DNA of 45,033 nt. It comes from a virus (lineage: Duplodnaviria; Caudoviricetes). Both the position numbers and the translations under genes were made by a program. Shown in pieces: positions 34,568-37,615 of this stretch. Numbering within the stretch: position 1 is the stretch's first letter; each line of letters opens with the position of its first letter. The notes under the pieces are model-generated. The model was not told the DNA's origin and did not search any database. It saw nothing but the letters and a program-made list of their open reading frames with translations. Location: positions 1-45,033 of IMG/VR virus record IMGVR_UViG_3300049049_000047; one strand, 5' to 3'.

Positions 34568-34677
34568 GCCATCCCCCAAACACGAAAGAACATCGGAACA
34601 ATGATTGGCGCGATAGCGTCACTGAAGGCGTACAGAGGCCATGCAATGACTGCGCTGATCAGGAAGGTGCGCGTCAT
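34564..34677 (-). CDS. Small hydrophobic peptide (37 aa)
   Basis: GGAG SD; MTRTFLISAVIAWPLYAF...; fills gap, ATGA coupling. Confidence 0.45.
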   Translation of the reverse strand: MTRTFLISAVIAWPLYAFSDAIAPIIVPMFFRVWGMA

Positions 34678-34678
34678 G

Positions 34679-35275
34679 TCAGGCTCCGGCCTTCAGGCTG
34701 TCCCGCAAAGCCTTCAGCCATGCATTGCGACCATCCGTGCGCTCGATTTCCTCGCGCTGGCCCTTGGTGTGATACTCGATGTCCTTGTGAGCATCCTTGA
34801 TCTTTTCTGCCTTCCAATCGGCAGTGGACTTACTGACTGGCTCGGTGTAATACTTCGTGCTGCAATCGAAGTCGATAGAGTCCCTGATCTGCTTCAGCAT
34901 GAATTCCTTGAAGCCTTCATGGTCATGGCTCGGCGGCTGCCATTGGAGGACTTGCGCGAGCATGGCGTTGTACTTGTTGCGCAGTTCGTTTGCGTCTTGC
35001 AGGCGCTTTTCATGCTGCTCGCACTGCGCGTTGAATTCTTTCTCGGCCTCACGTTCAGCTTCGGAATCGGCCATATTCGTGTACCAAGCCAGATTCTTCT
35101 GCGCCTCAGCCAGCTTCTTGGCGTGGTAGTCGGACGGCTCAAAGCGCTCCGGGATCGGTGCATCCATTGGATCATCGCGCATCATGACCAGCGCACCCAT
35201 CGCACGAGAGCAGCGCATCACGAACTGCTCAAACGTGATTCCATCCTTGATTTCTGCTGTGTATCCAGTTGGCAT
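34679..35275 (-). CDS. Conserved phage hypothetical protein (MPTGYT type)
   Basis: MPTGYTAEIKDGITFEQFVMRCSRAMGAL; GGAGG SD. Confidence 0.8.
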   Translation of the reverse strand: MPTGYTAEIKDGITFEQFVMRCSRAMGALVMMRDDPMDAPIPERFEPSDYHAKKLAEAQKNLAWYTNMADSEAEREAEKEFNAQCEQHEKRLQDANELRNKYNAMLAQVLQWQPPSHDHEGFKEFMLKQIRDSIDFDCSTKYYTEPVSKSTADWKAEKIKDAHKDIEYHTKGQREEIERTDGRNAWLKALRDSLKAGA

Positions 35276-35322
35276 TTCCCTTCCTCCCTGTTATTGGTTG
35301 TTGGCGGCCAAAATTGTTTGTT

Positions 35323-35503
35323 TGCCGGGGGCTGGATTTGAACCAGCGACCTATCGGTTAAGAACCGATTGCTCTTCGACTCGGAGAATTCCCGGATTTC
35401 TTGGCGGGTAGCTATTCCGCCAATCACCCGTTTCCTCTCTTCGCCTGCCTTGCGCTCGGGGGGATCAATCCCTTGCCTCGGCTGACCACTGAGCTACCCC
35501 GGA
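35323..35503 (-). tRNA. tRNA-Lys(CUU) interrupted by a 108-nt insert in the D-loop
   Basis: TCCGGGG-TA-GCTC-AGTGGTC|insert|A-GAGC-A-ATCGG-TTCTTAA-CCGAT-AGGTC-GCTGG-TTCAAAT-CCAGC-CCCCGGC-A; 73 nt after removing the insert; no encoded CCA. Confidence 0.8.
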
Positions 35504-35521
35504 AAGCAAACAACTTCATTC

Positions 35522-35705
35522 GCCAACAAGTTGAGGCTGTCGTGTTGCCTCCCGTGCTATTGCCGTCTGCCGAGGGCTTAGTAACGGGCGCTCAAACAGC
35601 CTCAGCTTGTTGGCTCCGGTGACGAGTTCCGGATCTGCTCTATCAGTGCAGACGGTTTGTGTTCATTGGCTCGTTTTCGGGAGCCACGCGGCTGCATGTA
35701 GCAGC
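35522..35705. ncRNA. Structured non-coding block upstream of the tRNA
   Basis: 19-bp inverted repeat 35522-35540/35596-35614 (one mismatch) plus four small hairpins. Confidence 0.5.
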
Positions 35706-35718
35706 ACCTAGGAGCGTC

Positions 35719-36054
35719 TTAATGCGTTTCGGGCTGCATTTCTTCCACATGCCGCACGGCCCTCAATTCAGCAGTACGCTTCACGCTTTCATCAATGGCC
35801 GACAGAACGAACTGACGCGCAACGTTGGCCCCGCTGATGTCGCCACGCAGGGCGCAGCGCATGATGTGAACCATCGTCTCGGGCTCCATGAAGCCAAGAA
35901 TGTCGCCAGCGATTTCAAGTGCCTCGTCGTCCTTGCGCAGCAGGTCGCCGTAAATGTCACGCTCAATGCGCTTGGCCGTCTGGTCGATGTAGCGCTGGCG
36001 GTCGGCTTCGCTGTGGCGGGTATGCTTGAAGACTTGTTCGCTGACTGTGTTCAT
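35719..36054 (-). CDS. Hypothetical protein
   Basis: GGAGG SD, ATGA coupling. Confidence 0.7.
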   Translation of the reverse strand: MNTVSEQVFKHTRHSEADRQRYIDQTAKRIERDIYGDLLRKDDEALEIAGDILGFMEPETMVHIMRCALRGDISGANVARQFVLSAIDESVKRTAELRAVRHVEEMQPETH

Positions 36055-37589: not shown

Positions 37590-37615
37590 AAAAAAATCCC
37601 GCACGAGGCGGGATT
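37590..37615 (-). terminator. Terminator of the immunity operon
   Basis: AATCCCGC/GCGGGATT stem, T7 on minus strand. Confidence 0.75.

Follow-up and report, generated by a model that had tools for sequence, protein, structure and literature searches.

A phage tRNA-Lys(CUU) with a two-helix arm in its D-loop, and an apparently undescribed family of armed tRNAs rich in palindromic loop tips

Few features in biology are as conserved as the size and shape of tRNAs. The phage-borne tRNA-Lys(UUU) of T5, which lacks the UAAU site of the AriB nuclease, neutralises the PARIS system (PMC11464382; PMC12409363). The tRNAs targeted by AriB have U36-A37-A38-U39 in common, the D-loop substitution U16C impairs cleavage by this nuclease, which is predicted to touch the D-loop, and PrrC needs the modification of A37 (PMC12409363). 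Archaeal tRNA introns exist at position 20/21, with lengths of 11-129 nt, and eubacteria are described as having no protein-spliced tRNA introns (PMC4090602). Lak megaphages contain unexplained ("enigmatic") tRNA introns, 14/15 of which, in the rows of Table S6, start at positions 37-41 in the anticodon loop, one being listed with no position and none in the D-loop (PMC6784885). Phage T4 carries RNA C and RNA D in its tRNA region (NC_000866), both of them tRNA-framed stable RNAs of 120-140 nt. A review of non-canonical tRNAs describes extra-long arms elsewhere in the molecule and, in the part of its text available, no D-loop arm (PMC7609411), and the main text of PMC7162821 mentions neither an intron nor the D-loop. 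No description of natural tRNAs with large D-loop arms was found in the titles and abstract openings of a literature collection with few subscription papers.

Self-assembly is known from RNAs of other kinds. The homo-oligomers OLE, GOLLD, ROOL and manA show palindrome switching in their apical loops (10.1101/2024.12.08.627333; PMC12990946; 10.64898/2026.07.01.735769), and in OLE and GOLLD this switching has been taken as intermolecular pairing (10.1101/2024.12.08.627333). GOLLD and ROOL are found near phage tRNA clusters, and some GOLLD RNAs contain a tRNA. HIV-1 DIS dimers are driven by palindromic apical loops with a 6-nt palindrome, and the phi29 pRNA forms chains (PMC7357161).

The window analysed here, a complete 45-kb virus record with direct terminal repeats (IMGVR_UViG_3300049049_000047; 45,033 nt), was confirmed to hold a split tRNA-Lys(CUU) on its minus strand (Table 1). 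As a sequence-only reading had proposed, a 5' half and a 3' part are separated by a 108-nt insert (35483-35376), with a repeated AG at the junction. In silico removal of the insert gives a cloverleaf with paired acceptor (6/7 pairs), D (4/4), anticodon (5/5) and T (5/5) stems, which ARAGORN calls as tRNA-Lys(CUU) with a score of 119.4; the U1xC72 mismatch and the lack of an encoded CCA, noted in the same reading, were borne out. U8, A14, G18-G19 and the T-loop consensus are all present, and in these, in all four stems and in U35-U36-A73 the RNA is like canonical tRNA-Lys (RF00005) and the tRNA-Lys(UUU) of T5, with which it also shares the lack of the AriB site. The anticodon (35362-35360) is accompanied by U33, A37-A38 and C39, and the variable loop has 5 nt. 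The window RNA differs from canonical tRNA-Lys in its U1xC72 mismatch, in its D-loop of 116 nt (canonical D-loop about 7-11 nt, total 70-95 nt) and in escaping or misleading ARAGORN and Rfam: in the raw window both detect the 3' part alone, with a false 5' end, the RF00005 match scores 26.9 bits (cut-off 29) and the Rfam gathering score is reached nowhere in the window. A contig of run X2, from a different study, spans 34638-36051 with 0 differences from the window, so the element is not an assembly artefact; run X1 may be the source sample, and the pieces of runs X3 and X4 over the insert are short and carry little information. No second copy was found in the window genome, and against 50,697 cultured-phage records only tRNA 3' parts matched, with no full-length relative.

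Table 1. Features of the armed tRNA gene and its flanks in the window.
Feature	Positions	Strand	Description
5' leader	35504..35529	minus	predicted pairing with trailer, extends acceptor stem, -26.2 kcal/mol; candidate processing stem
tRNA body, 5' half	35484..35503	minus	acceptor 5' strand (U1), U8-A9, D-stem, D-loop to G18-G19-U20-C
Insert domain A	35447..35482	minus	stem-loop, GCC/GGC closing
Insert domain B	35378..35445	minus	long stem-loop with three purine-rich internal loops
Domain B apical loop, 9 nt	35408..35416	minus	perfect palindrome UAGCUA (35414-35409); predicted kissing loop
tRNA body, 3' part	35323..35375	minus	A21, D-stem 3' strand, anticodon arm, T arm, acceptor 3' strand, A73
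3' trailer strand of leader-trailer duplex	35298..35322	minus	predicted pairing
Upstream long imperfect hairpin	35522..35614	minus	3' strand competes with leader-trailer duplex by pairing trailer

On the minus strand the insert folds at -40.6 kcal/mol (z -2.1), against -34.7 kcal/mol (z -0.3) on the plus strand, in agreement with the strand preference claimed earlier, and the full 181-nt RNA has a folding z of -2.7. Domains A and B are separated by one nucleotide and are predicted to stack coaxially. Of the hairpins originally described the long arm is present, whereas the first is better drawn as the full domain A, whose loop in the minimum free energy (MFE) structure has 9 nt and is not a UUGA tetraloop, both pairings being possible. 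That description had overlooked the main feature of the insert, the self-complementary tip of domain B, which reads AA-UAGCUA-C and whose hexamer forms a modest self-duplex (-5.1 kcal/mol). The loop of domain A contains a hexamer that is self-complementary through G.U wobbles (35469-35464) and is predicted to be weak (self-duplex +0.6 kcal/mol). No close homologue of the window insert was found, and its own stems therefore show no covariation.

The gene content of the window fits a temperate podovirus (terminase, portal, ejection proteins, integrase, repressor, Erf, SSB and Gam). Its best portal-protein matches are 41-45% identical, and its host is most likely bacterial. The sequence was found in soil and rhizosphere metagenome runs, with no RNA run among the public runs listed for it. 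Within the leftward early operon, the RNA gene stands between two ORFs without a Pfam family, and since 7/7 phages with relatives of the downstream ORF have no such RNA upstream of it, the armed tRNA gene is accessory cargo. No clear promoter was found directly upstream of the RNA. Elsewhere upstream in the early operon there is a strong intrinsic terminator-like site (37595-37615, minus), and several short hairpins stand right behind the upstream ORF (35640-35720). The upstream hairpin and the leader-trailer duplex of Table 1 form a possible processing switch, as judged from predicted pairing. Codon counts in 17 phage ORFs (AAG 272, AAA 85) show that the CUU anticodon matches the preferred Lys codon. 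No neighbouring protein common to members was found among 124 ORFs (117/145 around long members and 7 from the window). A TROVE (Ro60) gene is absent from the window genome and present in 1/5 records, and with no Rfam match the RNA was not recognised as a YrlA RNA.

Viral, genome and metagenome collections were scanned with patterns in which a gap stands between a tRNA 5' half and a tRNA 3' part, two of these scans covering 19/64 and 53/64 parts of the collection, and a filter kept the matches in which all four stems (acceptor, D, anticodon and T) pair and neither half belongs to an intact tRNA. The filter returned at least 97 distinct split-D-loop sequences in at least 471 loci; after four long calls (L077, L281, L356 and L466) were dropped as tandem-tRNA or duplication artefacts, at least 29 had a D-loop of at least 55 nt and at least 64 a shorter one. 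Two sequences that had escaped the filter, L024 and L349, were recognised by eye and included ahead of the final tests, giving 31 long members with distinct tRNA bodies and inserts of 53-145 nt at the same D-loop site. All inserts follow G18-G19 and precede A21, a position that the scan pattern fixes only loosely. D-loop lengths run from 16 to 72 nt and then from 110 to 152 nt, and the gap at 73-109 nt, which coincides with tandem-tRNA spacing, the weakest zone of the scans, may be a search artefact or may separate two unrelated classes. Matches in genomes and metagenomes were mostly tandem tRNAs. A scan with gaps of 150-210 nt gave 77 matches, none with longer inserts, and a scan for non-U33 loops (21/64 parts) gave 122 matches that included at least one new member, L607 (D-loop 54 nt). 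Among cultured-phage records the insert of L308 had no match, and a short-class query retrieved ordinary tRNA-Lys only. Most long members lie in tRNA clusters of large phages and three are cellular (L278 and L295 in Pyrinomonadaceae MAGs, L299 in an Aenigmarchaeota MAG); in-silico insert removal yielded a tRNA in 29/29. The finding of same-site inserts in 31 long and 64 short sequences, with covarying stems at the site, excludes a one-off decayed pseudo-tRNA, the case named at the outset as refuting.

The short class consists mostly of canonical tRNAs, with U33 kept in 62/64, and is dominated by Lys(UUU) (26/60, against 47/460 intact tRNAs in the same loci). Its small hairpins have changing stems, 23/57 being GNRA-capped by MFE. 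Those in canonical tRNA-Lys(UUU) measure 10-13 nt, have covarying stems and are often GNRA-capped; among the examples are L227, L233, L385, L406, L419, L441, L396 and L420. Because hairpins of this size are too small to self-splice and eubacteria are without protein-spliced tRNA introns, the D-loop site very probably tolerates a retained arm.

Several other loci were noted in the course of the scans. The tRNA of L141 (1954-2059, plus) has a D-loop insert that resembles an additional anticodon arm, its loop reading amber (CUA), and a UAUUUAA arm follows. Ser-type anticodons (GCU, ACU) occur in L433, L447, L455 and L370 together with a D-loop arm of about 35-65 nt and no long variable arm; tRNA-Gly(CCC) with a D-loop hairpin of about 30 nt was seen on several contigs (L366, L395, L418, L439, L450), and tRNA-Thr with D-loop insertions of various sizes in L324, L362, L281, L305, L313 and L334, of which the partly duplicated L281 comes from a CPR bacterium. 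A permuted tmRNA (L307 970-1175), a group I intron (L132 770-1005) and a GOLLD RNA (L323 1441-1863) lie near long members. Suppressor-type tRNAs (CUA/UUA) and peptidyl-tRNA hydrolase genes occur near or among the armed tRNAs of L006, L342, L372 and L433, which are possibly from recoded phages.

Long inserts have little sequence in common and can be aligned only within small kin groups, yet their architecture recurs. Two abutting stem-loops, with a joint of 0-1 nt, fill 14/27 of the inserts of at least 100 nt (1.55 expected from shuffles), and two separate exterior stems are found in 22/31 long members. Palindromes of 6 nt occur in the loops of 18/29 against 3.3 expected from dinucleotide shuffles. 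With redrawn loops and the closing pair allowed, the figures are 20/31 against 3.5 expected, or 13/22 against 2.3 once kin are merged; strictly inside the unpaired loop they are 14/31 against 1.46, or 7/22 against 0.82 with kin merged (P 5e-6). Mirror repeats, used as a control, were seen in 0/31, and only 1/57 short inserts has a loop palindrome. The hexamers vary between lineages, so that a self-complementary apical loop kept despite sequence change is seen at the level of the family, on predicted folds. The loop CGUACG is retained by five members on five unrelated stems, UAGCUA occurs in four (the window, L031, L349 and L455), and L031, L044, L307, L349 and L455 have two perfect palindromic tips each. 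A perfect loop palindrome is missing from 11/31 long inserts, among them those of L218, which most resembles the window RNA, and of both copies linked to an isoleucyl-tRNA synthetase (IleRS). These counts should be read bearing in mind that the palindrome hypothesis was formed post hoc on the same data and that the loops are those of MFE folds, many of the inserts having weak z-scores; in the held-out scans the lone new member, L607, is self-complementary only via a G.U pair and failed the strict test. Pairing between different loops was found in only 1/31 long members, and complementarity between insert and anticodon loop showed no excess (3.7 against 4.1 nt).

The tRNA bodies of the long class are distinctive in several respects. 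Their anticodons are those of Lys, Ile, Arg, Asn, Ser and others, and NCCA, which the filter did not demand, is encoded in 22/29. U36-A37-A38 is present in 12/13 long members from anticodon-blind scans (the other scans required it and are left out) against 199/460 intact tRNAs (P 4e-4). U33 is kept in 17/29 and absent from 12/29, against 444/460 and 16/460 in intact tRNAs, a loss that is inflated by one scan having selected non-U33 loops. Position 39 is U in 6/26 long members against 81/190 in the background, and the window has C39 where AriB requires U39, a difference more in keeping with resistance than with a decoy. All three 1:72 mismatches are U1xC72 (the window, L218 and L303), and a strong leader-trailer duplex of like design and different sequence occurs in L218 and L317; since these features recur, the oddities of the window RNA would be selected and not signs of decay.

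Two bacterial members, L278 and L295, stand in an operon with a synthetase gene. In two Pyrinomonadaceae MAGs an armed tRNA-Ile(GAU) is first in a RiPP-like operon (L483 6812-13338, G001:C63; L482 15438-8742, minus strand, G002:C1), followed by a short Cys-containing ORF, an MNIO/DUF692 protein, an RRE-methyltransferase, an IleRS and a methyltransferase, and in both a sigma70-like promoter was read by eye before the tRNA. Both genomes have another IleRS besides that of the operon, and G002 also carries a normal tRNA-Ile(GAU). A cognate synthetase encoded so close to an armed tRNA suggests that the tRNA body is charged and serves outside normal translation or in self-resistance; both copies lack a palindromic MFE loop and so support charging, not dimerisation. 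The armed RNA was not found in 150 other genomes of the family (a tally that includes the unpublished G131), nor the operon protein in 400 genomes of the phylum, and no literature joining MNIO, IleRS and RiPP was found.

Set against the systems described above, the armed tRNAs apparently form an undescribed class that lies outside every known family tested and resembles a kissing-loop RNA built on a tRNA. The inserts of the window and of 34 member loci match no Rfam family in the search proposed for them, and covariance models of GOLLD, ROOL, OLE and manA match neither the window element nor the inserts; resemblances to the T-box, RNase P and K-turns seen by eye were dropped, there being no Rfam match. 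Palindrome switching in apical loops is shared with OLE, GOLLD, ROOL and manA, and one GOLLD lies 1.1 kb from L323. Assembly of armed tRNAs is predicted from sequence folds, and they would carry the assembly module inside the tRNA where some GOLLD RNAs instead contain a tRNA. The hexamer of L238 is the DIS hexamer of PMC7357161, and armed tRNAs with two such loops could chain like phi29 pRNA; a retroviral use of a matching hexamer, not found in that review, was dropped. In contrast to the DIS and pRNA, the sequence and context of armed tRNAs are unrelated, and their palindromes are more AU-rich, weaker and homotypic, not formed by two complementary loops. Archaeal 20/21 introns share the position and similar lengths, but armed tRNAs lack the bulge-helix-bulge (PMC4090602). 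The Lak introns are phage tRNA inserts of similar size located in the anticodon loop (PMC6784885), and T4 RNA C and RNA D, by sequence and fold, do not show the canonical D-stem and anticodon arm kept by armed tRNAs.

On the observed anatomy, family, two-stem architecture, palindrome enrichment and anticodon-loop bias we build an explanation whose chances, taken whole, are about even: that a tRNA-Lys-shaped RNA keeps its 108-nt two-helix arm, that the palindromic tip pairs copies of it, and that the dimers or assemblies serve as a decoy or shielded store and not as a routine decoder. The RNA would be transcribed within the leftward early operon, released by a cut in the leader-trailer duplex, trimmed by RNase P and completed by CCA addition, and charging by the cognate synthetase is plausible. 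Its arm would project at the elbow from position 20/21, leaving G18/G19 free for the T-loop, and kissing through UAGCUA would give dimers, members with two palindromic tips being able to chain or ring. As the weakest step, the assemblies would serve as multivalent decoys for host enzymes that target tRNAs, or as a store shielded from them. Judged from sequence comparison, retention of the arm in the RNA is likely, and the earlier suggestion of a tRNA-scaffolded RNA displaying an extra domain gains support from homologous architectures at the same site and from covarying stems. If the arm is retained, the predicted fold makes self-pairing through the tip of domain B rather probable. A role against tRNA-targeting defence, taken alone, is more tentative; it fits the U36-A37-A38 bias, but this bias is family-wide and not Lys-specific.

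The main rival to this explanation is a shielded working tRNA, which is charged, reads AAG and whose bulk at the elbow blocks anticodon nucleases, self-pairing being incidental or a matter of storage. The window RNA has C39, which avoids the AriB site, and it keeps U33, A37, A73 and an intact CUU anticodon for the main Lys codon of the phage; contact of AriB with the D-loop is predicted (PMC12409363), and short D-loop hairpins are enriched in canonical tRNA-Lys(UUU). We nevertheless consider it unlikely, given that a 108-nt elbow arm would probably clash with the ribosome, that activity in translation is usually lost when tRNAs are engineered into fusions with aptamers (PMC7590224), and that U1xC72 is present in the window and U33 is often lost in relatives. 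The arm might instead be cut out, which would leave the tRNA nicked in two pieces and set free a small RNA able to pair with itself. RNase III-type cutting without religation is how intervening sequences of 23S rRNA are removed, and here too long helices abut the D-loop and sequence conservation would not be required. The two exterior stems of 22/31 members, however, form no single helix closing both ends, so that clean removal needs extra cuts, and the window helices are interrupted by purine-rich loops; such processing is quite improbable.

A true intron of new type, self-splicing or removed by an endonuclease and ligase to yield a normal 73-nt tRNA-Lys, would account for the high-scoring tRNA left by insert removal and has a precedent in the archaeal introns at 20/21 (PMC4090602). 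The original observation that the window insert has neither GUGYG...AY ends nor a bulge-helix-bulge holds, and it extends to the family: group II ends were found in 0/29 long members, with no domain V or Rfam match, and a bulge-helix-bulge in 0/29, or 2/29 under relaxed rules (L299 and L329). The group I core (RF00028) matched no insert, and its model matched elsewhere in L132. A register with an exon U and a terminal G exists in the window and in 10/29 members, about chance over up to 11 registers by a rough, uncomputed estimate. PF09414 (Rnl2-type) RNA ligases are encoded by 3/4 large-phage carriers, but the window phage encodes neither these nor RtcB, which is absent in 5/5 carrier records tested. 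With 12/29 long members lacking U33, splicing often would not restore a normal decoder, and protein-spliced tRNA introns are absent from eubacteria (PMC4090602). The minimal intron suggested earlier is thus not supported, there being no conserved ends or core and small GNRA hairpins occurring at the same site in canonical tRNAs, and we regard it as decidedly improbable for the window. One member may be a case apart: in L299 (2994-3213, plus), a tRNA-Thr(CGU), the 145-nt insert repeats tight hairpins (z about -5), has no palindromic loops and may represent either an archaeal 20/21 intron or an inserted repeat. A last rival, that the tRNA gene is decaying and has neutrally taken up a palindromic repeat or a mobile remnant, would agree with an insert without homologue, with the seven downstream-ORF relatives that have no RNA, and with U1xC72 and the missing CCA. 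It is largely refuted, and very improbable, in view of a single insertion site over 90-odd sequences, intact stems, the recurrence of U1xC72 and of the flanking duplex, loops conserved on diverged stems and the lack of a second copy in the genome.

The family thus grows an arm of 10-145 nt at position 20/21 of a molecule of otherwise conserved size and shape, marking a site where natural tRNAs tolerate cargo. Since standard finders miss or mis-call armed tRNAs, phage tRNA sets are under-annotated, and the finding is relevant to the question why unusual tRNAs are carried by phages. Should the palindromic tips function, these would be natural self-assembling tRNAs of less than 220 nt. The broadest reading, which is doubtful at present, is that of a widespread, unannotated class of tRNAs that can be charged and that may assemble, through one or two kissing loops on the D-loop arm, into rings, filaments or cages displaying many anticodon arms and aminoacyl ends; phages would use them to absorb or withstand tRNA-cutting defences, and bacteria as amino-acid carriers excluded from the ribosome, as in the RiPP-like operon with its own IleRS. 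In this last respect, the copies linked to IleRS suggest that peptide biosynthesis has a tRNA of its own, dedicated to non-ribosomal use.
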